The position numbers and the translations under genes are program-made. The notes under the pieces are model-generated. The model worked only from the letters and a program-made list of their open reading frames with translations, did not search any database and was not told the DNA's origin. A stretch of 42,545 nucleotides of DNA, from UHGV virus genome UHGV-0212520, one strand, 5' to 3'. The DNA comes from a virus. How positions within the stretch are numbered: position 1 is the stretch's first letter; every line of letters starts with the position of its first letter. This document shows positions 694 through 42,542 of the stretch, one piece after another.

Positions 694-722
694 ACTATAA
701 TAGCTAACTATTCAGGTGTCAA
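694..722 (-). promoter_or_regulatory. sigma70-like promoter, family A copy 1 (TTGACA-N17-TATAGT on minus strand)
   Basis: Minus strand reads TTGACA (717-722), 17-nt spacer cctgaatagttagctat, TATAGT (694-699); near-identical blocks at 3855-3884 and 39831-39859. Confidence 0.55.
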
Positions 723-955
723 CCCTTCCAGCCAGTTATTTTCTCAACTATAGTTAGGTATATGTTAGGCCACTCTAAATTCCACACCCATTTAATTTCC
801 TTCGTCTGGCCCAGTTGCTCGGGGTCTACCGTTTCATACTTAATCGCAACGTAGACCACGAGTGGAAGAAGGATAATTAGAAGCGGCACTAACATAGCCC
901 AGTAAGCAACAAATGCCACAAACCCACCAAATACCCTGAACGTTTTACGAATCAT
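719..955 (-). CDS. Small membrane protein (one strong TM helix)
   Basis: ATG at 955 overlaps the stop of the upstream exonuclease gene (ATGA), with GAGGAGGA as RBS; hydrophobic stretch FGGFVAFVAYWAMLVPLLIILLPLVVYVAI. Confidence 0.45.
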   Translation of the reverse strand: MIRKTFRVFGGFVAFVAYWAMLVPLLIILLPLVVYVAIKYETVDPEQLGQTKEIKWVWNLEWPNIYLTIVEKITGWKG

Positions 956-3157: not shown

Positions 3158-3658
3158 TTATTCTTCTTCGAAATACTTGTTCTTGATTGCCGTAAGGCGT
3201 TCCAAGTACTCAGCAAGGTCTTCGTCTTTAATCGCGGCAATCTTCATCTTCTTGCCAGTGAACTCTTCCAGCAGTTCGTCAGAATCGTCGCATGCGGCGT
3301 CGCTAGGACCTTCGTTAATCGCGTCGTCGATGGCCTGAATCTGGTCACGAAGAGACTGGTAATCGACTTCTTCTTTCACTTCTTCCGGTTCTGGCGTTGG
3401 TTCCTCTACTTTAGCTTTACGCGGCTTGCGTTTCGGCTTCTCTTCTTCTGTCGGTTTAGTGTCGACGATGTCTTCACCTTCGACTGGGATTTCTTTTGTT
3501 TCTTCTTCTGCACATTTGGCTACCGCTTCTTTGGTATACACTACCGTCTCTATTTCCAGAGGCTCGGCAACCTGAACAACTTGTTTTGCACTATTCGCAG
3601 CAATCAGTTCGTGTGCAACTACGAAACGTTCCAGTAATTTTAAAAATTGTTCTAACAT
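3158..3658 (-). CDS. Highly acidic protein with short basic patch (function unknown)
   Basis: 166 aa, very E/D-rich (net charge strongly negative by eye) with internal KPKRKPRKAK; RBS AGGAGA. Confidence 0.55.
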   Translation of the reverse strand: MLEQFLKLLERFVVAHELIAANSAKQVVQVAEPLEIETVVYTKEAVAKCAEEETKEIPVEGEDIVDTKPTEEEKPKRKPRKAKVEEPTPEPEEVKEEVDYQSLRDQIQAIDDAINEGPSDAACDDSDELLEEFTGKKMKIAAIKDEDLAEYLERLTAIKNKYFEEE

Positions 3659-3673
3659 TTGTTTCTCTCCTGT

Positions 3674-3823
3674 TTATTTATACTTAACGGTTTTAACTAA
3701 CTGGCCTGTTGCTTTGTCGAAGAAGCCAACGCGATTGTTGCTTACTCGATATCGTGCGGTTTCTTTAGTCCCAAATGCGATATCAAGGCCTAACAAAATC
3801 TTTGCTTTGCGATTATTGGACAT
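3674..3823 (-). CDS. Small hypothetical protein (49 aa), first gene after promoter A2
   Basis: ATG at 3823 with strong RBS GAGAGGAGAGAAAC; not in ORF track (<60 aa); translation MSNNRKAKILLGLDIAFGTKETARYRVSNNRVGFFDKATGQLVKTVKYK. Confidence 0.35.
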   Translation of the reverse strand: MSNNRKAKILLGLDIAFGTKETARYRVSNNRVGFFDKATGQLVKTVKYK

Positions 3824-3854
3824 TTGTTTCTCTCCTCTCGTTTGGTATGGGCTA

Positions 3855-3884
3855 ACTATAATAGCTAACTATTCATTGTGTCAA
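3855..3884 (-). promoter_or_regulatory. sigma70-like promoter, family A copy 2 (TTGACA-N18-TATAGT)
   Basis: Plus-strand block aactataatagctaactattcattgtgtcaa is near-identical to the 691-722 block; divergent from the HTH gene at 3949. Confidence 0.5.
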
Positions 3885-3948
3885 TGGGCTTTTCTAAAAT
3901 AATTAATATGGTACTATTCACATATCAACTGACTAAGGAGTAACTGAC

Positions 3949-4164
3949 ATGCAACCATCTGAACTAGGCATCCGTGTAGAACAACGCCGAAAAGAACTCG
4001 GCATCTCCCAGCGCCGTCTGGCTGTCCTGGCCGGTGTTTCCCAGGGCGCGATTAATCAGCTGGCTCTCGGTGTAACTCAGGACGTCCGCCCGGCAACGCT
4101 GTTTAAACTGGCGGAAGTGCTGCAAGTAGACGCCAAGTGGCTGGCGTTTGGTGAAGGGGCTTAA
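3949..4164 (+). CDS. XRE/Cro-like helix-turn-helix transcriptional regulator
   Basis: 71 aa; HTH signature LGISQRRLAVLAGVSQGAINQLALG; RBS AAGGAG 8 nt upstream; lone plus-strand gene embedded in minus-strand early region, convergent with primase-helicase. Confidence 0.7.
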   Translation: MQPSELGIRVEQRRKELGISQRRLAVLAGVSQGAINQLALGVTQDVRPATLFKLAEVLQVDAKWLAFGEGA

Positions 4165-4180
4165 CGCCCCTTTCTTTTTA
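4153..4180 (+). terminator. Intrinsic terminator overlapping the stop codon of the HTH gene
   Basis: ggggc-ttaac-gcccc hairpin followed by tttcttttt. Confidence 0.5.
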
Positions 4181-4181
4181 C

Positions 4182-6449
4182 CTATTCCAAATCCTCCTCT
4201 GTCACCACCAGCATTTCATTCGGTTCGTATATTGTCTTCGGTATTTTGTTGTCCGTTATCCGGGTGTTCAGCCTGTAACGGCCCGGTATTATCTGATTGT
4301 TTTCGTCTGTTCCAGGTACAAGATACCCGGCCTCAACCATTTTCTTAATCTTCCCGCGTTCTATGGCTTCTTTGGAGTTAAACGCCTTCGCGTTGGGGTC
4401 AGACTGTGCCAGCTTATTCGCTGCGGCCACCGTGATACCTTCGTTGCCGTTGTAGGTTCCTTCCGCCAGTTCAAACGCTGCCAGTATCGTGGCTTCTGAA
4501 CTGTTGACGGCGTTCTCTACGGTTTTACGTACATTTTCTTTACCTTCCTTTGTCAGCCCTTCTTCGCGCTCTTTCTCCTCGTCAGTCTTGAACGGCTCGA
4601 AGCCCCACGGCATCAGCACAAGCGCCTTGTGCGGCTCAGGCAGGTCGAGGTTTACTATTGTGCCGTATTCCTCTGTGTTACCCAGGAACTCAACTGCACG
4701 GTACTCTTTCGGTGGCGGCGCTTCACGGAACTGTACCGACTCCAGCACCATGCCAACTGTCTTCTGTTGCGGCCCGTGCTTAAATTTCGAGTGGTATACG
4801 TTTATCTGTCTGTCGGTAGCGCGTTCGATTGTCAGTTCCACGTCGACGCCCGCGTACAGCGCCCCACTACCGCGGGCTTTCTTTCCACCTTTAGGTGTGT
4901 GGTGGACAACGCCTACCGCAGCTTTAGTTGCATCACGCACTTCTTTCAGGATGGCGATAACTTTACCCATGCCGATTGCCGTTGATGAGCTGTTCTCGTC
5001 GAACTTATCAATCGTCAGAGCCAGGGTCTGGTTGAGGGTGTCGAACGCAACCATCCCAATCGGCTCGTCGCCAGCAGTTTCACGCATTATCTTAATCAGG
5101 CTTTTCAGTTTTCCGACTTCACCCATATCGATGACGTGTACATAATCTTTACCCTCAACGCCGTATTTAGCCGCGAGTGCATCGATACGTGTACGTGTGG
5201 CTGCGCCACCCTCGCCGTCGATATAGAAATGGTGGCAACGCTGGGTGTCAGCCCCCGCAAACCGGTATCCGGTGGCGCTGAGGTACATCATCCCCAGCGT
5301 ATAGAACGATTTGTACGTGCCAGATTCCCCGACGATATCCCAGATACAATCCGACGGCATGTACCCTTCTACGACGAAATCAGCCTTTACCGGGTCCGGC
5401 AGCTCGTCCTCCTCTGAGTCATCCTCGTCTTCCAGGTCGTCCAGGCTGCATGAAACAGATTCACGCGCGCCCCAGCCAATAGCCTCCGCGACTTCACTGA
5501 ACGGCAGACCAGTCGCATCGCACGCGTACTTCCACACCTCTTTCGGTGCCATGCCTTCGGTCGCCGTAATGTCGGTGTCGTGAATCATGGTTACGTTCGG
5601 CGCTTCGTAGCCTTCGCGCGGGAAGCACAGCAGGAAGTCGTCCGGGCGCGGTGTCGGGTCGCTGTAGTTCTCTGCATGTTCCGGTGTAGCTGGCATCTTC
5701 AGACCGCGGGGTGTCATGACGCCGCCGTACTCAAACGCCAGTGCCTCGAACGCGTCTGTAAACGCGGTGCGCAGTTCTTCCGGTATCTGGTAATCCGATG
5801 CGCTGCTCACCTCGTAATCCGGGGCGCCTTCCAGTAATTCGTCCGGGTCAATCAGGTCGTTGCGGCGCGACCAGATAACAGTAGAGCCTACCGGCGGCAG
5901 GTACATCGGTTGCGAAAGGGTGAAACCGCTGCGGTCGGCACCCATGCCTTTGAAGAAGTGCTCAAGCAAGCCATGACGAACACGGATGACGTCACCACCT
6001 TCGACTGGGCGGGCCAGCGGCATGACGACACGGAACCGCGGCGACTCATCGTTATGTGATGCCGTGGTGTAGAGGCACATAGCCCGTCGGCTGCGCTTAA
6101 CCAGGCACACCGCTTCCTGATACTCTTCCGGCGTTGCACTGTCGAAGTCAAGATACGCTAGTGACGATTTGCTTACAGACGCGTCACAGCGGTAAAAGAA
6201 GCCTTTACGCGCCCGCTTAAGGTCCCCGGTTTCCGGGTCTTTTACGGTGCTGTGCGTAGAGTCGCACGCAGCGGTGATATACCCCGGCGCGGTCTTAGGG
6301 TTAATCCCGCCACGGACAGCATCAAGCGGCTGGATTAACTCTTTCAGGTCGTCCAGTGTTGCTGTGTGTGTGGTTCTGACGTTTATATCCTTTTTCTCTG
6401 CCCGCGCGTTGCGACGAGACCACGAGTAGGATAAAATTACATCGGACAT
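4182..6449 (-). CDS. Putative replicative primase-helicase (C-terminal RecA-fold/RepA-like ATPase)
   Basis: 755 aa; C-terminal region GESGTYKSF ... VVHHTPKGGKKARGSGALYAGVDVELTIER resembles RepA/DnaB-like ATPase helicases; N-terminal domain unassigned; RBS GAAGGA; ends in TEEDLE. Confidence 0.6.
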   Translation of the reverse strand: MSDVILSYSWSRRNARAEKKDINVRTTHTATLDDLKELIQPLDAVRGGINPKTAPGYITAACDSTHSTVKDPETGDLKRARKGFFYRCDASVSKSSLAYLDFDSATPEEYQEAVCLVKRSRRAMCLYTTASHNDESPRFRVVMPLARPVEGGDVIRVRHGLLEHFFKGMGADRSGFTLSQPMYLPPVGSTVIWSRRNDLIDPDELLEGAPDYEVSSASDYQIPEELRTAFTDAFEALAFEYGGVMTPRGLKMPATPEHAENYSDPTPRPDDFLLCFPREGYEAPNVTMIHDTDITATEGMAPKEVWKYACDATGLPFSEVAEAIGWGARESVSCSLDDLEDEDDSEEDELPDPVKADFVVEGYMPSDCIWDIVGESGTYKSFYTLGMMYLSATGYRFAGADTQRCHHFYIDGEGGAATRTRIDALAAKYGVEGKDYVHVIDMGEVGKLKSLIKIMRETAGDEPIGMVAFDTLNQTLALTIDKFDENSSSTAIGMGKVIAILKEVRDATKAAVGVVHHTPKGGKKARGSGALYAGVDVELTIERATDRQINVYHSKFKHGPQQKTVGMVLESVQFREAPPPKEYRAVEFLGNTEEYGTIVNLDLPEPHKALVLMPWGFEPFKTDEEKEREEGLTKEGKENVRKTVENAVNSSEATILAAFELAEGTYNGNEGITVAAANKLAQSDPNAKAFNSKEAIERGKIKKMVEAGYLVPGTDENNQIIPGRYRLNTRITDNKIPKTIYEPNEMLVVTEEDLE

Positions 6450-7107: not shown

Positions 7108-7394
7108 ACATAATCGCACCTATTGACATTATGAAAATCTTCGTTTAAGGTGCTTCTATATCTTAGTTACTTTGATTCCTGTTCACCTTGTAATACCCGC
7201 TTGAAACGCAGCTGCGCCAAAGCGCAAGCGAAGTGTTAAGCGGCAGATTACTGAACATATGAATTATAGTAACTTTCCTTCCTTAGTATCTCCGGTTGCC
7301 CTGGGCAAGCTCTATTCTCATCGGCAGCATATCTCTTAAGTATCTGATTTTCTTAAAGTGCCGTAGATTCGCAACCGTAAAAATGTAACGATTA

Positions 7395-7425
7395 TTGGGC
7401 AGGCCTTAAGGCCTGCCCTTTAGTT
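7395..7425 (+). terminator. Strong hairpin (gggcaggcc-ttaa-ggcctgccc) with downstream T-tract inside the large intergenic region
   Basis: 9-bp perfect stem at 7397-7418 followed by tttagtt; no annotated upstream plus-strand gene. Confidence 0.4.
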
Positions 7426-7490
7426 ACCAAGTAATAAGAATAAAGGCACAACCTTCCCTGAAGAATCACAACGGCAACGTAACTATTCTC

Positions 7491-8820: not shown

Positions 8821-8849
8821 TTGCACAGTAAGATAGAATAGGCTACTAT
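8821..8849 (+). promoter_or_regulatory. sigma70-like promoter, family B copy 2 (TTGCAC-N17-TACTAT)
   Basis: TTGCAC 8821-8826, spacer agtaagatagaataggc, TACTAT 8844-8849. Confidence 0.5.
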
Positions 8850-8879
8850 TCATTTACACAAACGAGAGGAGAGACAGAG

Positions 8880-10842: not shown

Positions 10843-11151
10843 TTGGATAAATTTACTGAAACAGTGACAGGGTGGCTTCTCGCCGCCGCACTAGCCGGAG
10901 GGGTCATCGGGCTACGACAACATAAGTCCGTTATTTCTGGCCCCATCGACGGGTTCTGCTTTATTGCAACTGGCTTCACCTGCGCCGTATTTGGCGCACC
11001 TCTCGCAGCTCAATGGTTCGGCATTACCGGCGAACGCGAAATAGCTGGCCTCGGATTTATCATCGCTGTTCTCTGGATGCCTATCTATTCCCGCCTCTCC
11101 GGTATCGTCGCCGGGGAATACATCTCACGTCGAGGAGGCCCGGATGAATGA
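10843..11151 (+). CDS. Putative holin (multi-TM small membrane protein)
   Basis: 102 aa with about three hydrophobic segments, immediately upstream of endolysin; start per ORF track (my base count around the start was off by one, so start uncertain). Confidence 0.45.
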   Translation: MDKFTETVTGWLLAAALAGGVIGLRQHKSVISGPIDGFCFIATGFTCAVFGAPLAAQWFGITGEREIAGLGFIIAVLWMPIYSRLSGIVAGEYISRRGGPDE

Positions 11152-11416
11152 GTTATTCTGGTTCGGCGGTATGCTGGCAATCGGGGGCACGTCGCTGTTT
11201 AACGTGTATCATCCCAGCGTGGACGACGGATTATTTGGCCGGGTGCTCTATATCCTCACCGCCATTGTCTGCGCTGCCGGGTGCATCCACCTGTTACAGG
11301 GCAGCATGTCACCTACGCTGCCTGAGACATTAATCACATTAGTTGCGCTGCGTCAGATTCGCCAGGCGTGGCTGTCATACGGAGGTAATAAGCGTGTCTC
11401 GAAACATTTCAGATAA
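11144..11416 (+). CDS. Putative second holin/antiholin-like membrane protein
   Basis: 90 aa with two hydrophobic segments; overlaps both the holin and endolysin genes. Confidence 0.4.
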   Translation: MNELFWFGGMLAIGGTSLFNVYHPSVDDGLFGRVLYILTAIVCAAGCIHLLQGSMSPTLPETLITLVALRQIRQAWLSYGGNKRVSKHFR

Positions 11417-11882
11417 TGGGTTGCATTTTACCGCTGCGTTCGAGGGATTCCGAGGAACTGCGTATCGTGCTACGCCGAATGAGAAGTACCTTACTATTGG
11501 CTACGGAAGCTACGGCCCACATGTTAAGGCAGGACAGACCATCACCCCCGGACAGGGCTTGCTGTTACTGAATCGCGATATGGCTAAGGCTGTAGCCGCG
11601 GTTGATGCAGCGGCACACCATTCATTAACACAGGCTCAGTTCGACGCTGTGTGCGACCTGGTGTATAACGCTGGTGCTGGTGTGATTGCTGCTACCACCG
11701 GCACGGGTAAGGCGCTGCGTTCGGGTGATACCGCGACGCTGCGGGCTAAGCTGGCGCTGTTCATCAACCAGAACGGCAAACCGCTACTTGGCCTGCGTCG
11801 CCGTACCGCGGGCCGCCTGGCACTGTTTGACGGTAAGCCGTGGCAAGAGGCTGAGGCTATCGGGCGCGCGGTGAAAGGTTGA
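11394..11882 (+). CDS. Endolysin, phage lysozyme (GH24-like muramidase)
   Basis: Pattern NGLHFTAAFEGFRGTAY...TIGYG...QFDAVCDLVYNAG...LLGLRRRTAGRLALF resembles P22-type lysozymes; start set to GTG 11394 (RBS GGAGG 8 nt upstream). Confidence 0.75.
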   Translation: MSRNISDNGLHFTAAFEGFRGTAYRATPNEKYLTIGYGSYGPHVKAGQTITPGQGLLLLNRDMAKAVAAVDAAAHHSLTQAQFDAVCDLVYNAGAGVIAATTGTGKALRSGDTATLRAKLALFINQNGKPLLGLRRRTAGRLALFDGKPWQEAEAIGRAVKG

Positions 11883-17564: not shown

Positions 17565-17596
17565 AGAAAAAGGCCCCGTTAAGGGGCCTTAATTTC
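17565..17596. terminator. Bidirectional intrinsic terminator (AAGGCCCC-N5-GGGGCCTT family)
   Basis: aaaaaggccccgttaaggggccttaattt; A-tract upstream and T-tract downstream. Confidence 0.65.
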
Positions 17597-17884: not shown

Positions 17885-18928
17885 ATGAGCTTACTTACAT
17901 CCCTAATCAGCCACCAGATTTGGCTGCAACGCACCGCATCGGGCGAAGTGAAAGACCTTGCGCCTTTCATTAAGGAGATGCGGGACGAAATCAAACGGCA
18001 GGTGCTGCTGTTCGGTGACGATGGGCGTAGCACCGCGCGACTGAATAAACTGTTACGCGACCTGGAAGAAGCACTGAGCGGACTTACGGGCGACTGGCAA
18101 ACAAAGCTGACGGAAGACCTTAAGGAACTGGCGGAGTATGAAGCAGAGTGGAACGTAAAAACGCTGACGGCTAACGTTAACGCGGAATTTGTTACACCCG
18201 CCGCCGAGCAGGTGTGGTCCGCCGCCGAGTTTCAGCCTCTGTCGCTAAGCGACAAGCCTGTCGATTTCACCAAGCTGATGTCGGACTGGGGTGAAACGGA
18301 GGTTGCGCGCCTGGTAACTGGTGTTAAGATGGGTTTCGTACAAGGGCAAACCACACGGCAGATTGTTAAGAATGTTGTAGGCGCTGGCGGACTGGCCGAC
18401 ATCTCAGAACGTAACGCAGCTACCGTAATCCGCACCGCGCTGTCGCACGTATCCAACGAAGCCCGTAACGAGACGTACCGCCAGAACGACGACATCATCG
18501 AGAAATACGAATGGGTATCAACGCTGGACAGCCGTACCAGTACGATTTGCAGAGCCAGAGACGGAATGACGTGGGAAATCGGTAAAGGGCCGATGCCCCC
18601 CGCCCATCCGAACTGTCGATCGTGCACGGCACCGGTAATCAGTTCAGAGTTCGATTTCCTGGATAAAGGCGCAAAACGCGCGGCTAAGGGCGCGGACGGC
18701 GGGACTCAGGTAAGCGCGGACACCACTTACTACGAGTTCCTTAAACAACAACCGGCGTGGTTTATCGACGAGGCCATCGGCCCTGTTCGCGGTAAGATTT
18801 TCCGCGACAGCGGTATATCGCCAGAGGAGTTTCGCGTAATATCTGTAGATGGTTTCGGGAATCCGCTAACGCTTAAGCAGATGGCGGAACTCGATAAACG
18901 TGTTGCTGATTATCTGAAAGGGGAATAA
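17885..18928 (+). CDS. Head morphogenesis protein (Mu gpF / SPP1 gp7-like)
   Basis: 347 aa; C-terminal WVSTLDSRTSTICRARDGMTWEIGKGPMPPAHPNCRSC matches the conserved minor head protein motif; follows portal. Confidence 0.7.
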   Translation: MSLLTSLISHQIWLQRTASGEVKDLAPFIKEMRDEIKRQVLLFGDDGRSTARLNKLLRDLEEALSGLTGDWQTKLTEDLKELAEYEAEWNVKTLTANVNAEFVTPAAEQVWSAAEFQPLSLSDKPVDFTKLMSDWGETEVARLVTGVKMGFVQGQTTRQIVKNVVGAGGLADISERNAATVIRTALSHVSNEARNETYRQNDDIIEKYEWVSTLDSRTSTICRARDGMTWEIGKGPMPPAHPNCRSCTAPVISSEFDFLDKGAKRAAKGADGGTQVSADTTYYEFLKQQPAWFIDEAIGPVRGKIFRDSGISPEEFRVISVDGFGNPLTLKQMAELDKRVADYLKGE

Positions 18929-19389
18929 TGATGGGCTTTTTCAAAGTAACTGATGCACCGTCGCGCCGCGTAGTCCAGTACGCCCGCGTGTCTGGCTCTG
19001 GCGAGAACGTTGTGTTTATTGAGGATGAAAGTGTACTCGGCACACCTGTGGACGATATGCCTTTTGCAGATAAAACCGGTATTGCACTACCCGCAGCGGG
19101 TATGCTTTACGAGATTCCGTATCTGGCGGACGCAGGCGATGTGTATTTCTCTGTGCAACCGAAAGACGCTGAACTGGCAGACGGCAGCGCAACTATCACT
19201 GTCGAAGTTAAGGCTGGCAAAGCGCCGTATGCTCTTACCTGGTACAAAGACGGTAAGGAAGTGGTCAACGCCCCTGAAGAGGCTTTGTCTCTGACGGTTA
19301 ACGCAGTCGGTGAATACTTCGTTAAAGTTACCGATGCCGGTGGTGTAGAGGCCGTCAGTAAAGTGGCGAAGGTCACTAAGCCTGAATGA
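18928..19389 (+). CDS. Ig-like domain protein (possible capsid or tail decoration)
   Basis: 153 aa; YALTWYKDGKEVV...GEYFVKVTDAGG resembles bacterial Ig-like domains; similar segment in 22336-22677. Confidence 0.5.
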   Translation: MMGFFKVTDAPSRRVVQYARVSGSGENVVFIEDESVLGTPVDDMPFADKTGIALPAAGMLYEIPYLADAGDVYFSVQPKDAELADGSATITVEVKAGKAPYALTWYKDGKEVVNAPEEALSLTVNAVGEYFVKVTDAGGVEAVSKVAKVTKPE

Positions 19390-19390
19390 T

Positions 19391-19418
19391 AAAAGGCCCC
19401 AAATGGGGCCTTAGTTTT
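19391..19418. terminator. Bidirectional intrinsic terminator (AAGGCCCC-N4-GGGGCCTT family)
   Basis: aaaaggccccaaatggggccttagtttt. Confidence 0.65.
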
Positions 19419-19542
19419 ATGTTAAGCTGAGTCTTTCTGCCCACTCAAGCATCACCTTTTTAATGCGTGAGTCGGGGGCGTCTCTCCACGCTTTACGGAT
19501 AACCGCAGCTCGACATTTATTTTTAAGAGGTGCGTAGTTCAT
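19417..19542 (-). CDS. Small hypothetical protein (41 aa) driven by promoter B3
   Basis: ATG 19542 on minus strand, translation MNYAPLKNKCRAAVIRKAWRDAPDSRIKKVMLEWAERLSLT; ends at the terminator; weak RBS. Confidence 0.3.
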   Translation of the reverse strand: MNYAPLKNKCRAAVIRKAWRDAPDSRIKKVMLEWAERLSLT

Positions 19543-19593
19543 TTTAAATATTCCCGATTTGATGGATTAAACATGTTGTGTGTGTTGAAATGA

Positions 19594-19622
19594 ATAGTAC
19601 CCTATTGTATTGGTGTCTGCAA
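19594..19622 (-). promoter_or_regulatory. sigma70-like promoter, family B copy 3 (TTGCAG-N17-TACTAT on minus strand)
   Basis: Reverse complement: TTGCAG acaccaatacaataggg TACTAT tcattt; near-identical to 28174-28202. Confidence 0.5.
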
Positions 19623-19674
19623 ACTATTTATTTACCTATTCCAGTTATTCCACCGAATTGTAAATGTTAGAATA

Positions 19675-19690
19675 AACTATTCGAATAGTT
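19675..19690. promoter_or_regulatory. Perfect 16-bp palindrome AACTATTCGAATAGTT overlapping the -35 of the 19689 promoter
   Basis: aactattcgaatagtt reads identically on both strands; contains the ACTATTC motif found at the family B -10 regions. Confidence 0.5.
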
Positions 19691-19717
19691 GACTTTTCAC
19701 TAAAAATGTGCTAAGCT
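19689..19717 (+). promoter_or_regulatory. sigma70-like promoter with extended -10 (TTGACT-N17-TGcTAAGCT)
   Basis: TTGACT 19689-19694, 17-nt spacer ending in TGc, TAAGCT 19712-19717. Confidence 0.4.
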
Positions 19718-19724
19718 CCACCTG

Positions 19725-19895
19725 AGCTTGTGAAGTATGAACAAGCGACCGCGGCGCGGGCAGGTAACGGAGCGGGACGTAAGTCCTGAGTGTAGTTACG
19801 CTGACGCGTTCGGAAGGGCCATACTCTATTGCTTGTGTAAAAAGTAACAGGTTTACTGAGATTACGCCGTTTCTATGTTTAAATGATAAGGCCTA
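19725..19895 (+). ncRNA. Candidate small RNA or structured leader between promoter 19689 and terminator 19896
   Basis: About 170-200 nt transcribed interval with no ORF that has an RBS (only a 36-codon ATG ORF at 19737-19847 without SD); GC-rich internal inverted repeats (gcttgt/acaagc, ccgcg/cgcgg). Confidence 0.25.
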
Positions 19896-19922
19896 GCGCC
19901 CCGCTTTAAGGCGGGGCTTTAC
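19896..19922 (+). terminator. Intrinsic terminator-like hairpin upstream of the spanin genes
   Basis: gccccgc-tttaag-gcggggc followed by tttactt. Confidence 0.5.
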
Positions 19923-19942
19923 TTATCGAGAAAGGGGGAAAC

Positions 19943-20332
19943 ATGAATCTTAAAGCAACTGTCGTAGCGGGAGCGTGTTTCATCATCCTGGCCCACGCAC
20001 ACGGCGTCTACCAGTACCGCATCGGCTGGAACGAAGGCCGGGCGAATCTCGTTTCGCAGCAACAGCAGAAAGCACAGGCTGAGTTCGCGAAGAAAACACA
20101 ACGGCAGCAGCAGGATGAATCAAAGGCCGCAGCCGCTGACAACGAAGGTAAGACGAAATCAGAGGTGATTACCCGTGAAGTCGTTAAGTACATTAAAACG
20201 CCTGGTCGCAGCGTGTGCACTTTTGACCCTGAGCGCGTGCAGCTCAAGTCCCGCGCCGTCGTCAACGCCAATTCCATCCCCGGATACGATGATGATGCAG
20301 CCGCCGTGCAAACTGGCAGCGCCAAGCAGTGA
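19943..20332 (+). CDS. Rz: i-spanin (Rz-like)
   Basis: 129 aa; N-terminal TM segment, Q/E-rich coiled-coil middle, RBS AGGGGGA; lipoprotein gene in +1 frame within its 3' half. Confidence 0.65.
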   Translation: MNLKATVVAGACFIILAHAHGVYQYRIGWNEGRANLVSQQQQKAQAEFAKKTQRQQQDESKAAAADNEGKTKSEVITREVVKYIKTPGRSVCTFDPERVQLKSRAVVNANSIPGYDDDAAAVQTGSAKQ

Positions 20333-20438
20333 CGCGGACGAGGATTTAGCTATCGACGTTCAGAATGCTGAATGTGTACGGCAACTGCGTCTGAAAGTGT
20401 TCATGTTGCAGGATTACGTGAGGAATATTCTGGAATAG
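20175..20438 (+). CDS. Rz1: o-spanin (Rz1-like outer-membrane lipoprotein)
   Basis: GTG start with RBS GAGGTGA; lipobox LTLSAC then Pro-rich mature region; overlaps Rz in alternate frame and extends beyond it. Confidence 0.6.
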   Translation: MKSLSTLKRLVAACALLTLSACSSSPAPSSTPIPSPDTMMMQPPCKLAAPSSDADEDLAIDVQNAECVRQLRLKVFMLQDYVRNILE

Positions 20439-20520
20439 TTGCCTTGCATGTTGGAATAATTTATTCTTGACATGTAAATCCGGGTGGCCCGGGTTCCAAC
20501 GTCCAGGGGACATACTGACT

Positions 20521-21225
20521 ATGAATCGTTTTTTACGTTATCCGTTCCAGGAAGAAGCTGGGGCAGAAGATAAAGCCGGTGGCGGAGATGCGCCGAAAAT
20601 GTTCACCGCTGAAGAAGTTCAGGCGCTGATTGAGAAAGAAGTCGCTGGGCTTAAGGCCAATCAGGAAGCATTGCTGGCGGAGAAGAAAGAAGCCGCCCGT
20701 AAAGCAAAAGAGGCCGAAGAAGAACGGCAGCGCGCACATCAGGAGGCTCTAAAAGCCGCCGGTAAGATGGACGAGTTTGAAAAAACGATTCGTAGCCAGT
20801 ATGACCCGGTGTTAGCCGAGAAAGATGGCCGCATCTCCAAAATGGCAGAGCGCATCCTCGGCAGCGAACGTAAAGCAGTGTTAGGCTCTTTCGCAGGTGA
20901 CTTTATTACCCCGGAAGCAGTGGACATTCTTGCGCCGTTCGTTAAGACTGAGTTCGAAGGCGATGATGTGGTTACTAAGTTTGTTGGCGCAGACGGCAAC
21001 GTAATCACGACTGACCCGGAACAGTTCCGCAAATACCTGCGTGAACACAAAGCGTTTTCGCATTTGATTAAAGCAAATGCAGCTTCCGGCGGCGGGGCTT
21101 CCGGTAGCAAAGGCGGCGGGGCCGCACCAGCGTTTAAAGACATGAGTGAAGCGGAGCGCATTGCTCTGTATGAATCGAACCCTGCCGAATTTGAACGGCA
21201 ACTTAAAGCCCTGAGGAAAAAATAA
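20521..21225 (+). CDS. Putative scaffolding protein
   Basis: 235 aa from ATG 20521; charged, Ala/Glu/Lys-rich coiled-coil; immediately upstream of major capsid gene. Confidence 0.55.
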   Translation: MNRFLRYPFQEEAGAEDKAGGGDAPKMFTAEEVQALIEKEVAGLKANQEALLAEKKEAARKAKEAEEERQRAHQEALKAAGKMDEFEKTIRSQYDPVLAEKDGRISKMAERILGSERKAVLGSFAGDFITPEAVDILAPFVKTEFEGDDVVTKFVGADGNVITTDPEQFRKYLREHKAFSHLIKANAASGGGASGSKGGGAAPAFKDMSEAERIALYESNPAEFERQLKALRKK

Positions 21226-22274
21226 TGGCAATTACTACTATCGGCGACATCGTAACTGGTAAAGAATCGGTCATTCTGTCTTACATGACAGAAGACCCGG
21301 TGGAGAAAACTGCGTTCTTCCAGTCTGGTATTCTTACCCCGACCCCGTACGCCGCTGCTATCGCTAACGGCCCGTCCAACAAAGCTGTTCTGCCGTACTG
21401 GAAAGCGATTGATACTTCTATCGAGCCGAACTACTCGAACGATGTGTATCAGGACATCGCAACCCCTCGTAACGTGCAGACCGGTGAGATGGACGTTCGC
21501 GTAGCTTACCTGAACGAAGGTTTCGGTCAGGCGGATTTGACTGTCGAACTGACCAGCCAGCAGCCGCTGCGATCCGTAGCGTCCCGTCTGGATAACTTCT
21601 GGCAGCGCCAGGCACAACGCCGTCTGATTGCTACCGCGCTTGGTCTGTACAATGACAACGTAGCCACTACCGACGCGTACCACGAGCAGAACGACATGGT
21701 AATCGACGTGTCCTCTACCCTGGGCTTCGACTCCGGCGCGTTCATCGATGCTACCCAGACTATGGGTGATGCGCTGATTGGTAACGGCGGTGAAGTGCTG
21801 GGCGCTATTGCAATGCACAGCTTCGTTTATGCGCAGGCGCGTAAGCAACAGCTTATCGACTACATCCGTAACGCAGACAACGACACCATGTTCGCCGCCT
21901 ACCAGGGCTACCGCGTGATTGTTGATGACAGCATGACCGTAGTCGGTACTGGCGGCAGCCGTAAGTTCATCTCCATTATCTTCGGTAACGGCGCTATCGG
22001 TTACGGTGAAGGTTCTCCGTCCAACCCGCTGGAATACGAGCGCGAAGCGTCTCGCGGTAACGGTGGTGGTGTTGAAACCCTGTGGACCCGTAAGACCTGG
22101 TTGCTGCACCCGTTCGGCTACAGCTTCACCAGTGCAGTAATCACCGGCAACGGCACCGAGACTACCCCGCGCTCCGCTTCCTGGCAGGACCTGGCTAACG
22201 CCTCCAACTGGAACCGTGTTGTTGAACGTAAGCACGTACCGATTGCCTTCCTGGTAACTGGTGTCGGGTCTTAA
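21225..22274 (+). CDS. Major capsid protein
   Basis: 349 aa, downstream of scaffold; followed by a strong terminator; call is by synteny and size. Confidence 0.7.
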   Translation: MAITTIGDIVTGKESVILSYMTEDPVEKTAFFQSGILTPTPYAAAIANGPSNKAVLPYWKAIDTSIEPNYSNDVYQDIATPRNVQTGEMDVRVAYLNEGFGQADLTVELTSQQPLRSVASRLDNFWQRQAQRRLIATALGLYNDNVATTDAYHEQNDMVIDVSSTLGFDSGAFIDATQTMGDALIGNGGEVLGAIAMHSFVYAQARKQQLIDYIRNADNDTMFAAYQGYRVIVDDSMTVVGTGGSRKFISIIFGNGAIGYGEGSPSNPLEYEREASRGNGGGVETLWTRKTWLLHPFGYSFTSAVITGNGTETTPRSASWQDLANASNWNRVVERKHVPIAFLVTGVGS

Positions 22275-22287
22275 GGTTAAGCTATAA

Positions 22288-22318
22288 TCGAGAGGGACTT
22301 CGGTCCCTCTTTTCATTT
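22288..22318 (+). terminator. Intrinsic terminator after capsid gene
   Basis: gagggac-ttcg-gtccctc followed by ttttcattt. Confidence 0.7.
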
Positions 22319-27914: not shown

Positions 27915-27951
27915 GCTTATTCCTCGTGCTTAGGATTTGTCCTATACTAGC

Positions 27952-28143
27952 TCACTTCTCTTTAACATTCGAGTTGCAAGCCCAGATTAAAATAAATAAC
28001 CACGGCAACAGAACCCAGCCAAGAAACAGATTAGCCATGAATATCGCTAATTTCGCTTTATGGTTGCGGAAGTACGCAACCAGGAAAGGTGTGAAATAGG
28101 CGAGAAGTGCAAACAGAATTAAGGAAACCGGTAAACTGGACAT
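27952..28143 (-). CDS. Superinfection immunity protein (T4 Imm-like small membrane protein)
   Basis: YFTPFLVAYFRNHKAKLAIFMANLFLGWVLLPWLFILIWA matches the Imm_superinfect pattern (YFLPSI..F.R.H.N..AIF.LNL.LGWT..GW..ALIWA) from memory; start set to ATG 28143 (RBS AAGGGG); first gene after promoter B4. Confidence 0.6.
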   Translation of the reverse strand: MSSLPVSLILFALLAYFTPFLVAYFRNHKAKLAIFMANLFLGWVLLPWLFILIWACNSNVKEK

Positions 28144-28173
28144 TTTAAACCCCTTCATTGTTGGTGTAAGTGA

Positions 28174-28202
28174 ATAGTACCCTATTATATTGGGGTGCGC
28201 AA
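28174..28202 (-). promoter_or_regulatory. sigma70-like promoter, family B copy 4 (TTGCGC-N17-TACTAT on minus strand)
   Basis: Reverse complement: TTGCGC accccaatataataggg TACTAT tcactt; drives the imm/phosphoesterase operon. Confidence 0.55.
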
Positions 28203-37560: not shown

Positions 37561-37695
37561 CTCTTCGGATAACTTCTCCAGTACAAACGCCAGTTGCGCA
37601 TTAGCGGCATCTCTCTGTTGTCGTAGTCGTAGAACCTCTTCCTCGAGTTCCTTGATACGTTTTTGCAATGCTGGGATCGGGGCTATGATGTTCAT
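37558..37695 (-). CDS. Small coiled-coil protein (45 aa)
   Basis: ATG 37695 overlapping helicase stop; MNIIAPIPALQKRIKELEEEVLRLRQQRDAANAQLAFVLEKLSEE; not in track (<60 aa). Confidence 0.35.
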   Translation of the reverse strand: MNIIAPIPALQKRIKELEEEVLRLRQQRDAANAQLAFVLEKLSEE

Positions 37696-39116
37696 TTCTT
37701 ACCTCGTCTCTTCATGTAATTAAGCAACTCTTCCTGTACCGATTTCTTCTCGTCAGTGCGCGCGGCAACAACCTCGTCCAGCGTGTCTTTAGCGACGATG
37801 TGATAGAGGAACACCGGGCGCTCGTGCCCTGCCTGTTTCTGGCGGACCGGGCCTATACGCTCAACGACCTGCAAATAGTGCTCAAGGTTCCACCCTTGCG
37901 AAATAAACGCCAGATGGTGCCCGCCGTCCTGTAAATTCAAACCATGCCCGGCTGACGCAGGGTGCACGCACAAGATTTCGATTTCACCTCGGTTCCACGC
38001 TTCCATCTGCTTATTACCCTTCGCACCTTTTGCAAACGCCTGTGCTTGTGGGAATCGCTTAAGGATGCGCTCAAGTTCGTGCTTAAACTGGTAGGCCACT
38101 AACAGTGGCGCGCCCTGCAACTCCTCGACAATGGACTCCAGCGCATCCAGTTTCGTGTCGTGTACTTTCTCCCAGTCTTTCGTTGCTTCTCCGTCCGGCC
38201 CTGATACATACACGGCACCAGATGCGATCTGCAAGCACTTAGATGTTTTCGCCGCAGCGTTAGCTGCTTCAACTTCTCCGCTCTCCAGTTCCGCGAATAA
38301 CTTCTCCTCCATATCGATGTACGCCTGGCGCGCTTTCTTCGGCAGGTCTATTTCAACCGGTACGATAGTCGGCGCTTCACAACCGAACCACTCGGCAGCG
38401 TCAATTGTGAGACTGATGTCCTTCATCCTCTGATGAATCTCATTATCCGCGCCTGGGCGCACCCGATACCTTCGCGCCATCGCCGATTTGCCCTCCTGTA
38501 CCGAGTTAAACCAGCGGTCGGTGAATGCTGTGTATGAAGAACCCAGGCGCTCGCCAGCGTCGATAAACCAGTTCTGACCCCACAAGTCTTTGAGTCCGTT
38601 TGGTGACGGCGTACCAGTCAGGTTAATGAACCGCTTAACCTTACCGAACGCCACTTTACTAAGCGCCTTTGCTCGCTTGCTGCCTCCAGAACGGCTGCGG
38701 AATGATTTTAGTTTCGTGCTTTCATCGGCAACGATAACGGTAAAAGGCCAGTCGTCTTTGCCGTAGTAGTCAATCAGCCACTCGATAACTTCGTAGTTAG
38801 TGCACACCACGTTAGCATCAGACTCCAGGGCCGCGATGCGGCGCTTCTCTGAACCGGTTGCGTCTACGACACGCAGACAAGGAAATTGCCATTTCTCTTG
38901 TTCTGCGGGCCATGTACCTGATGCAACGCGCAACGGGGCGAGAATTAACACGCGGTCGTCGTCCGTAAGTTGGCCGTTGCGGAACAGCCGGTTTAATGCC
39001 CACATTGTCGACGAGGTCTTGCCGCCGCCCATACCGCACCAGATATTGCAACGTGGGTGCTGTAGCATAAACGACGTCATTATTTTCTGATATTCCCTGC
39101 GCCTAAACTTACTCAT
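37692..39116 (-). CDS. SNF2/DEAD-like superfamily 2 DNA helicase
   Basis: 474 aa; motif I CGMGGGKTSST, motif II VIVADESTKLK, C-terminal helicase region HPASAGHGLNLQ...QVVERIGPVRQ. Confidence 0.65.
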   Translation of the reverse strand: MSKFRRREYQKIMTSFMLQHPRCNIWCGMGGGKTSSTMWALNRLFRNGQLTDDDRVLILAPLRVASGTWPAEQEKWQFPCLRVVDATGSEKRRIAALESDANVVCTNYEVIEWLIDYYGKDDWPFTVIVADESTKLKSFRSRSGGSKRAKALSKVAFGKVKRFINLTGTPSPNGLKDLWGQNWFIDAGERLGSSYTAFTDRWFNSVQEGKSAMARRYRVRPGADNEIHQRMKDISLTIDAAEWFGCEAPTIVPVEIDLPKKARQAYIDMEEKLFAELESGEVEAANAAAKTSKCLQIASGAVYVSGPDGEATKDWEKVHDTKLDALESIVEELQGAPLLVAYQFKHELERILKRFPQAQAFAKGAKGNKQMEAWNRGEIEILCVHPASAGHGLNLQDGGHHLAFISQGWNLEHYLQVVERIGPVRQKQAGHERPVFLYHIVAKDTLDEVVAARTDEKKSVQEELLNYMKRRGKK

Positions 39117-39809: not shown

Positions 39810-40181
39810 TTATATTGTTGGTGTATGGCTACTATAATAGTTCGCTATTAGGCCGTCAACCTGTTTAAACGACCCAACGACAAAAACATTCGCGCCGCGT
39901 TTACGCATCCGCTCGTGCTCACGTAACTGGTGCGTGTCTGGCTTCGTGTTTTCGTCTTTCTTAACCTCAACGAACCAGACGATGCCGCCTGGGAGAAGTA
40001 CCAGCAGGTCGGGAGCGCCGGAACGCCCCTCGTACGACAATTTGCGTACGAGGCCCCCCAGGGCCTCGAATCGCTCTTTTGCGTATTTCTGAATCTTGCC
40101 CTCAGGCGTACTCATCCACACACCCCTCACGTTTCGTATGCGCAATCCCGCAGCGCGGACAGATTCGGCAGTCTTCTCCAT
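39810..40181 (-). CDS. VRR-NUC domain nuclease (PD-(D/E)xK fold)
   Basis: 123 aa; GAPDLLVLLPGGIVWFVEVKK matches the D...E-x-K core of VRR-NUC proteins. Confidence 0.55.
   Translation of the reverse strand: MEKTAESVRAAGLRIRNVRGVWMSTPEGKIQKYAKERFEALGGLVRKLSYEGRSGAPDLLVLLPGGIVWFVEVKKDENTKPDTHQLREHERMRKRGANVFVVGSFKQVDGLIANYYSSHTPTI
39831..39859 (-). promoter_or_regulatory. sigma70-like promoter, family A copy 3 (TTGACG-N17-TATAGT on minus strand)
   Basis: Reverse complement: TTGACG gcctaatagcgaactat TATAGT; embedded in the 3' end of the VRR-NUC gene. Confidence 0.5.
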
Positions 40182-42514: not shown

Positions 42515-42542
42515 TAAAAAGGCCCAATGAAGGGCCTTAGTT
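42515..42542. terminator. GC hairpin of the AAGGCCC-N-GGGCCTT family at the window end
   Basis: aaaaggcccaatgaagggccttagtt; lies upstream of the pol start on the minus strand, so its role (terminator of an upstream operon or processing site) depends on sequence beyond the window. Confidence 0.4.

Follow-up and report, generated by a model that had tools for sequence, protein, structure and literature searches.

The window analyzed in this report is a 42,545-nucleotide stretch of viral DNA (UHGV virus genome UHGV-0212520). It is a Kagunavirus-like genome of the Guernseyvirinae and a circular permutation of such a Kagunavirus genome, and its spanin region is ~92% identical to that of Escherichia Kagunavirus phages (Golestan, Bas76). 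Two overlapping genes in this region, here called Rz and Rz1, are predicted to encode the two components of a spanin complex. These genes, together with the other lysis genes and the neighboring head genes, are as follows.

10843-11151, plus strand: holin (PHROG 2359)
11144-11416, plus strand: second holin or antiholin (PHROG 2508)
Start near 11394-11421, end 11882, plus strand: soluble lysozyme-type endolysin (Pfam PF00959 Phage_lysozyme, E 1e-25)
19943-20332, plus strand: i-spanin (Rz-like), an ATG ORF of 129 amino acids that matches PHROG 2536
20175-20438, plus strand: o-spanin (Rz1-like) lipoprotein precursor, a GTG ORF of 87 amino acids that matches PHROG 5672 and PHROG 1267
20521-21225, plus strand: head scaffolding gene, with an ATG start (PHROG 206)
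21225-22274, plus strand: major capsid gene (PHROG 247)

A first-pass annotation of the same DNA had proposed an Rz/Rz1-like pair, consisting of a protein with a transmembrane segment and a coiled coil and of a lipoprotein gene overlapping it in the +1 frame. The transmembrane segment and the +1 lipoprotein gene are borne out by our analysis, but the coiled-coil part is seen only as a long helix. In a profile search, Rz matches PHROG 2536 ("Rz-like spanin") over its full length (E 9e-55). Its most hydrophobic 19-residue stretch, residues 5-23 (nt 19955-20011; Kyte-Doolittle value 1.61), lies inside a predicted helix and provides the single N-terminal transmembrane anchor expected of an i-spanin; a hydrophobic segment is found at the same position in the relatives. 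Single-sequence AlphaFold predicts residues 3-62 as one long helix (pLDDT 70-81), and gives low confidence for the C-terminal half (pLDDT below 50 for residues 68-129). Heptad periodicity is weak: in the best register, hydrophobic residues occupy 9 of the 18 a/d positions. For the Jersey family, PMC6139136 describes two helices joined by a beta-strand linker. Rz has a single periplasmic cysteine, Cys92. Its identity is 95% to the spanin annotated in phage phiWAO78-1, 90.6% to the Rz of K1G and 60.5% to that of SETP3.

The Rz1 gene starts 232 nt downstream of the Rz start, which places it in the +1 frame relative to Rz. It overlaps Rz by 158 nt and ends 106 nt beyond the Rz stop, so it is overlapped rather than embedded, as had been proposed, and has the +1-frame, overlapping arrangement of two-component spanins. 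Shine-Dalgarno-like sequences lie 5' of both the Rz ATG and the Rz1 GTG. The Rz1 protein matches two profiles that are both labeled "Rz-like spanin" (PHROG 5672, E 3e-30; PHROG 1267, E 1e-19). Its N-terminus, MKSLSTLKR-LVAACALLT-LSAC, combines a basic n-region (MKSLSTLKR) and a hydrophobic core with a lipobox (L-S-A-C, nt 20229-20240), in which Cys22 is the predicted lipidation site and is followed by Ser at +2. By sequence, Rz1 therefore has what is expected of an o-spanin, namely a lipoprotein signal, a lipobox cysteine and a residue other than Asp at +2. The mature part is proline-rich and contains Cys45 and Cys67.

To assess conservation, we used the Rz protein to retrieve 48 related loci from IMG/VR, among which 47 have a complete Rz. 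The +1 ORF and the lipobox cysteine are kept in all 47 of these, and the lipobox itself varies by lineage (LSAC, LASC, LLSGC or LLNGC), as does the sequence of the signal peptide. One lineage (the FSL SP-031 type) has a "separated" arrangement of Rz and Rz1. Codon-position diversity was computed on 39 distinct colinear sequences. In the segment that is only Rz, the third codon position of the Rz frame is the most diverse (0.234 vs 0.108 and 0.084), and in the segment that is only Rz1, the third codon position of the Rz1 frame is the most diverse (0.246 vs 0.086 and 0.033). These peaks, each in its own frame, indicate that both frames are under purifying selection.

These data bear on the alternative that the ORFs are not spanins at all, so that Rz would be a small protein of the membrane or of head assembly and the +1 frame would be open by chance. 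A structural role might be read from the location of the pair within the head cluster, and a Pfam search produced no match for either Rz or Rz1. However, the full-length match of Rz to a spanin PHROG, the lipobox cysteine retained in every relative despite differing signal peptides, the third-position signature in the Rz1 frame and the curation of the family as spanins (PMC6139136) have already largely refuted this explanation, and we regard it as very improbable.

The pair belongs to a family that is already described. Kongari et al. (2018; PMC6139136) defined a "Jersey" family of spanins, whose 27 members, among them Jersey, SETP3, SE2, K1G, K1H, K1ind1-3, HK578 and EP23, have the overlapped architecture; the overlap is 155 bp in Jersey, and the o-spanin cysteines at positions 45 and 67 are constant. 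The window's pair is homologous in sequence to these members, and shares with them both Rz1 cysteines, the N-terminal anchor of Rz, an overlap of ~155-158 nt and the place in the genome. The differences are of no substance: the overlap is 158 rather than 155 nt because the window's Rz has 129 rather than 128 amino acids, and its lipobox reads LSAC, in place of the LASC or LLNGC of sister lineages. GenBank records of Kagunavirus relatives carry a "putative spanin" or "Rz-like spanin" at the corresponding site, and spanins apart from holin and endolysin, at a locus identical to the window's, were described for phages Schulenberg (2019; PMC6763661) and fBC-Eco01 (2023; PMC9825357). The spanin family, its overlapped architecture and its split from holin and endolysin are thus already published and annotated, and this layout is the norm for the group. 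For this reason the spanin finding matters little in itself, beyond confirming that the raw sequence was read correctly. Our search of the literature found no experiments on this spanin family.

As in phage lambda, an inner-membrane protein is paired with an outer-membrane lipoprotein encoded in the +1 frame, and the mechanism is presumed to be the same. However, lambda Rz1 is wholly embedded in Rz, whereas the window's Rz1 extends past it; the lambda pair comes right after S and R on a single late transcript, whereas the window's pair lies 8 kb away; and the two pairs have no detectable sequence similarity. The T4 spanins, pseT.3 and pseT.2, are likewise unlinked to e and t.

The location given in the first-pass annotation, about 8 kb from the holin and endolysin genes (10843-11882) and directly upstream of scaffold and capsid genes, is accurate. 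The profile matches to holin, endolysin, scaffold and capsid place these genes as listed above, and 8,061 nt separate the end of the endolysin gene (11882) from the Rz start (19943), so the lysis genes do not form a contiguous lambda-type cassette. The endolysin translation has no N-terminal hydrophobic anchor.

In contrast, the same annotation's description of the pair as displaced must be abandoned. All 48 IMG/VR loci share one gene order, which runs from portal through MuF-like head-morphogenesis, Hoc-like decoration and a variable gap to Rz/Rz1, scaffold and capsid, and no holin or endolysin occurs in these loci within a flank of ~4 kb around Rz/Rz1. Approximately 660 phage records in the clade carry the window's Rz family. 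More distant Rz homologues occur in a separate genus, Dhillonvirus. Its members PS2 and YD-2008.s have two holin genes, endolysin and a few further genes, then terminase, portal, head-morphogenesis and Rz/Rz1, followed by two opposite-strand genes and then scaffold and capsid. The spanins are again apart from holin and endolysin, but here the pair abuts the head-morphogenesis gene (Rz overlaps its stop by 8 nt), and the promoter-leader unit described below is absent. Because all 48 loci are syntenic and the place is the same in Dhillonvirus, we infer that the position is ancestral and stable across the clade rather than a displacement.

We consider it very likely that these genes are the i-spanin and o-spanin of a Kagunavirus-like siphophage, belong to the Jersey family, act by a lambda-like mechanism and occupy an ancestral place in the head module, probably with a promoter of their own. 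Gene identity, architecture, conservation and synteny, as well as the conserved RNA structure described below, are shown by the sequence data. Processing and localization of Rz1, the fusion mechanism and the role in lysis are assigned here by analogy, and use of the promoter and any role of the leader are likewise predictions. By this analogy, the N-terminal helix of Rz would anchor it in the inner membrane. Lipid attachment at Cys22 and cleavage by signal peptidase II would precede the sorting of Rz1 to the outer membrane. Joined through their C-terminal parts, the two proteins would form a bridge across the periplasm that the peptidoglycan mesh restrains. Once holin and endolysin destroy the wall, the spanin complexes would fuse or disrupt the outer membrane.

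Work from the Young laboratory holds that spanin action is kept in check by intact peptidoglycan and not by the timing of transcription. Spanin genes would then need to be expressed only at some point before holin triggering, and, because the last step is gated by wall breakdown, could sit anywhere in the late region. Such gating weakens the argument that a split cassette implies separate control of the last step. In the Guernseyvirinae, a slot of variable, often opposite-strand genes, together with terminator-like hairpins, would have come to lie upstream of the spanins.

The sequence around the spanin genes contains several elements that could govern their transcription. Terminator-like hairpins were identified by a terminator scan of both strands. 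The elements are as follows.

17569-17594: GC-rich stem-loop after the portal gene, scored as a terminator on the minus strand only
19393-19412 (repeat copy 19391-19416), both strands: two-way terminator-like hairpin
19675-19690: perfect 16-bp palindrome AACTATTCGAATAGTT, which abuts the promoter-like site and is a likely regulator site
19689-19717, plus strand: promoter-like site with TTGACT (19689-19694), a 17-nt spacer and TGc-TAAGCT (-10 at 19712-19717)
19720-19827, plus strand: conserved structured leader RNA of ~100 nt, from folds and a covariance model
19898-19917, plus strand: GC-rich hairpin from the terminator scan, 25 nt before the Rz ATG and followed by TTTACTTAT
20439-20492, plus strand: Rz1-scaffold spacer, conserved across relatives
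20439-20467, plus strand: promoter-like site with TTGCCT (20439-20444), a 17-nt spacer and TATTCT (20462-20467)
20454-20466: 13-bp palindrome GAATAATTTATTC in the Rz1-scaffold spacer
20480-20492: hairpin CCGGGTGGCCCGG, whose flanks covary (AATC..GATT vs ACAC..GTGT)
22290-22311, plus strand: terminator-like hairpin after the capsid gene

The hairpin at 19393-19412 closes the block of terminase, portal, head-morphogenesis and Hoc genes. Similar hairpins, of the form AAAGGCCCC-loop-GGGGCCTTAGTT, make up a repeat family with three copies at module boundaries (17569-17594, 19391-19416 and 42517-42542), and these are probably two-way terminators. The promoter-like site at 19689-19717 is 225 nt upstream of Rz and unique within the window. 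Across 46 distinct relatives its -35, TG and -10 elements are kept, and the Jersey type has TAGACT/TACGCT. The -10 in the window (TAAGCT) is poor, and the site falls below the threshold of a consensus scan.

Immediately before Rz, the hairpin at 19898-19917 has an 8-bp stem with seven GC pairs and passes the terminator scan, but its T-run is weak. The Jersey type also has a poor T-run at this hairpin (tail TTAGCGTAT). The stem is kept in relatives with C-G to G-C changes, and the tail can also pair with an upstream GATAAG. A possible outer stem around the hairpin would be GATAAG/CTTATC in one clade and TATACG/CGTATA in another, although the alignment offsets these two clades by one column. This element is either a weak terminator or attenuator, or a stem within the 5' UTR. 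Because of the upstream terminator-like hairpins and the conserved promoter-like site, a separate transcription start for the spanin genes is likely.

Half-site palindromes of the form GAATAG/CTATTC are repeated beside promoter-like sequences elsewhere in the window (694-724, 3855-3885, 8834-8854, 19579-19622, 27943-27963, 28159-28202 and 39831-39861), as well as in the two palindromes listed above (19675-19690 and 20454-20466). A matching motif, tgAATAGTa-ccTATTat, was named a phage-polymerase promoter in the report on fBC-Eco01 (PMC9825357). In our view, the palindromes more closely resemble an operator to which a DNA-binding protein of the phage would bind.

Downstream of the promoter-like site, the leader RNA consists of a small hairpin (19726-19746), a long three-part hairpin (19749-19813) and then an invariant AAGGGCC. 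The two stem-loops have conserved internal loops and exhibit strong covariation. A conserved single-stranded motif, TTTACTGAGATTACGCCGT (19852-19870), lies between the leader RNA and the GC-rich hairpin. The proposed architecture is the minimum-free-energy fold in five of seven divergent sequences and the centroid in a sixth. In the alignment, 96.3% of cells are paired, and 15 of 29 base pairs are changed on both sides. None of 500 shuffles was as good as the proposed structure and no slid control came close; the alignment was itself fitted to the model, a bias in favor of the structure. A covariance model built from 12 sequences hits all relatives, including the 66%-identical allele of the Jersey type.

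Conservation of the leader exceeds that of the flanking genes. The ~200 nt from promoter to Rz are 95-99% identical where the Rz DNA is 75-96% identical, and, among 181 phage records, 179 match the leader at 95% identity or more over 142 nt. In relatives, the unit is either unannotated or called as a hypothetical protein of 36 amino acids. The corresponding ORF (19737-19847) was rejected as a gene: indels of 1 nt cut it to 9 or 17 amino acids in some relatives (L004, L024, L027 and L005), it is frame-shifted in another (L016), it has lost its ATG in a further one (L013), and it is absent from the Jersey type. Thus, the upstream "hypothetical protein" of several relatives is not a gene, but overlies a conserved structured RNA.

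A covariance search of 19000-21000 with Rfam 15 models (E up to 1) yielded no relevant match for the leader, and neither of our leader models, run with filters off, found a second copy in the window. In bacterial genomes, the leader pattern gave 76 hits across unrelated phyla, which by estimate is approximately the number expected by chance. Only one of these scored with the leader model, and it is a 738-nt contig resembling phage contamination. In IMG/VR, the pattern occurs in 44 stretches, nearly all from contigs of the Rz search and three from others.

Some relatives carry the leader more than once (~43 of the 181 phage records). A second copy of promoter and leader is present in Golestan (37633-37741) and in RP180 (38088-38196), where it heads the early-rightward block, in which holin and endolysin follow further on. 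Downstream of the Golestan copy (region 37600-37860) come a (CTCA)n run and a hairpin. The early-rightward control region of the window (7125-7430) contains a different unit, with TTGACA, 17 nt and TAAGGT, then a leader of ~270 nt and a terminator-like hairpin (7398-7425). By eye, a short motif in its 3' part, ..CTGATTT..GCCGTAG.., recurs in both the Golestan copy and the Rz leader.

From the split lysis genes, the first-pass annotation had drawn the further conclusion that the last step of lysis is regulated separately. One version of this explanation is that the split allows the last lysis step to be timed or dosed independently, through a promoter, leader and hairpin of its own. Part of the evidence fits: the hairpins at 19393-19412 and 19898-19917 (as well as the related stem-loop at 17569-17594) separate gene sets on the plus strand, the conserved promoter-like site upstream of Rz adjoins a perfect palindrome that is a likely regulator site, and a strongly conserved structured leader follows it. 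However, spanins that act only after wall degradation have no need of transcriptional timing, and the Dhillonvirus Rz is coupled directly to a head-morphogenesis gene without any leader. Moreover, the promoter-leader module in Golestan and RP180 also stands ahead of the holin/endolysin block, and therefore points to shared control. Coarse RNA-seq data for a related phage put lysozyme, MuF-like and capsid genes in a single temporal class (PMC12645636); the K1B4 RNA-seq paper offers no usable per-gene values for the spanins. On balance, a separate start is likely, but independent control of the last lysis step seems to us unlikely.

The Golestan and RP180 copies count in favor of a further explanation, in which promoter and leader form a cis-acting RNA like the put elements of phage HK022, which would render polymerase resistant to terminators. 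Polymerase modified in this way would read through both the hairpin that precedes Rz and the terminator downstream of capsid, and the two copies, where they exist, would coordinate both rightward blocks and thus both halves of lysis. The structured RNA begins a few bases past the predicted start and upstream of the hairpins and terminators, it has two covarying stem-loops with conserved internal loops, and HK022 put RNAs have a comparable placement and two-stem shape (PMC9378689). More generally, HK022 put and the lambda pR'-6S RNA-tR' unit have the same plan of a promoter, a short structured or terminated transcript and then late or lysis genes, and leader copies head two operons in some of our relatives as well. 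However, these units have no homology to the leader, the hairpin before Rz has a weak T-run, and the activity of the leader is putative. When the leader model was run on the whole HK022 genome, the best hit (12.8 bits, E 0.21) lay off the put sites, and we rejected the leader as a put homologue. The window has only one leader copy, and the RNA could equally be a stand-alone small RNA, an element for RNase processing or stability, or a protein-binding leader. We therefore give the put-like explanation only a small chance of being correct.

Under our preferred reading, that of a Jersey-family spanin pair in its ancestral place, the spanin, scaffold and capsid genes would most likely be transcribed from their own sigma-70-type promoter (19689-19717) through the conserved structured leader. 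The leader RNA might be the only new part of the finding. It may work as an antiterminator of the put type, as an attenuator, as an element for processing or stability, or as a small RNA. A more specific hypothesis, which we put forward as a speculation with the odds against it, is that the unit at 19675-19925 represents an undescribed family of regulatory RNAs restricted to the Guernseyvirinae. Such an RNA would act in cis on polymerase or transcript, in a put-like manner or as an attenuator, and switch on the spanin, scaffold and capsid genes; where a second copy exists, it would also act on the holin/endolysin block, and so tie the two halves of lysis together. If the leader controls late transcription, it would be a new and experimentally easy handle on gene timing in phages that include widely used therapeutic coliphages and Salmonella phages.

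The o-spanin is annotated in many database records as a product of 47 amino acids, starting at internal methionines (MMMQPP). These truncated calls lack the signal peptide and lipobox, and are located as follows.

20295-20438, window: truncated o-spanin call
5839-5982, Bas76 (L001): truncated o-spanin call
5586-5729, Golestan (L002): truncated o-spanin call

PHROG 5672 is a profile of 47 positions and covers only residues 41-87 of the full Rz1; because its match is limited to these residues, it appears to have been built from truncated calls. The truncated form, in many GenBank records and in PHROG 5672, can mislead automated calls of lysis genes.

Between the Hoc-like gene and the Rz leader lies a variable slot, which in the window contains a minus-strand ORF of 41 amino acids (19542-19417). 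In relatives this slot is occupied by different opposite-strand genes, such as one resembling PAPS reductase in FSL SP-031. Farther upstream, the head-morphogenesis gene is far longer, or its match is split, in several relatives (L007, L012, L015, L017, L036 and, at 3405-5198, RP180 [L131]). These long or split genes fit the inteins reported for Guernseyvirinae; the window's own head-morphogenesis gene (17885-18928) is uninterrupted.
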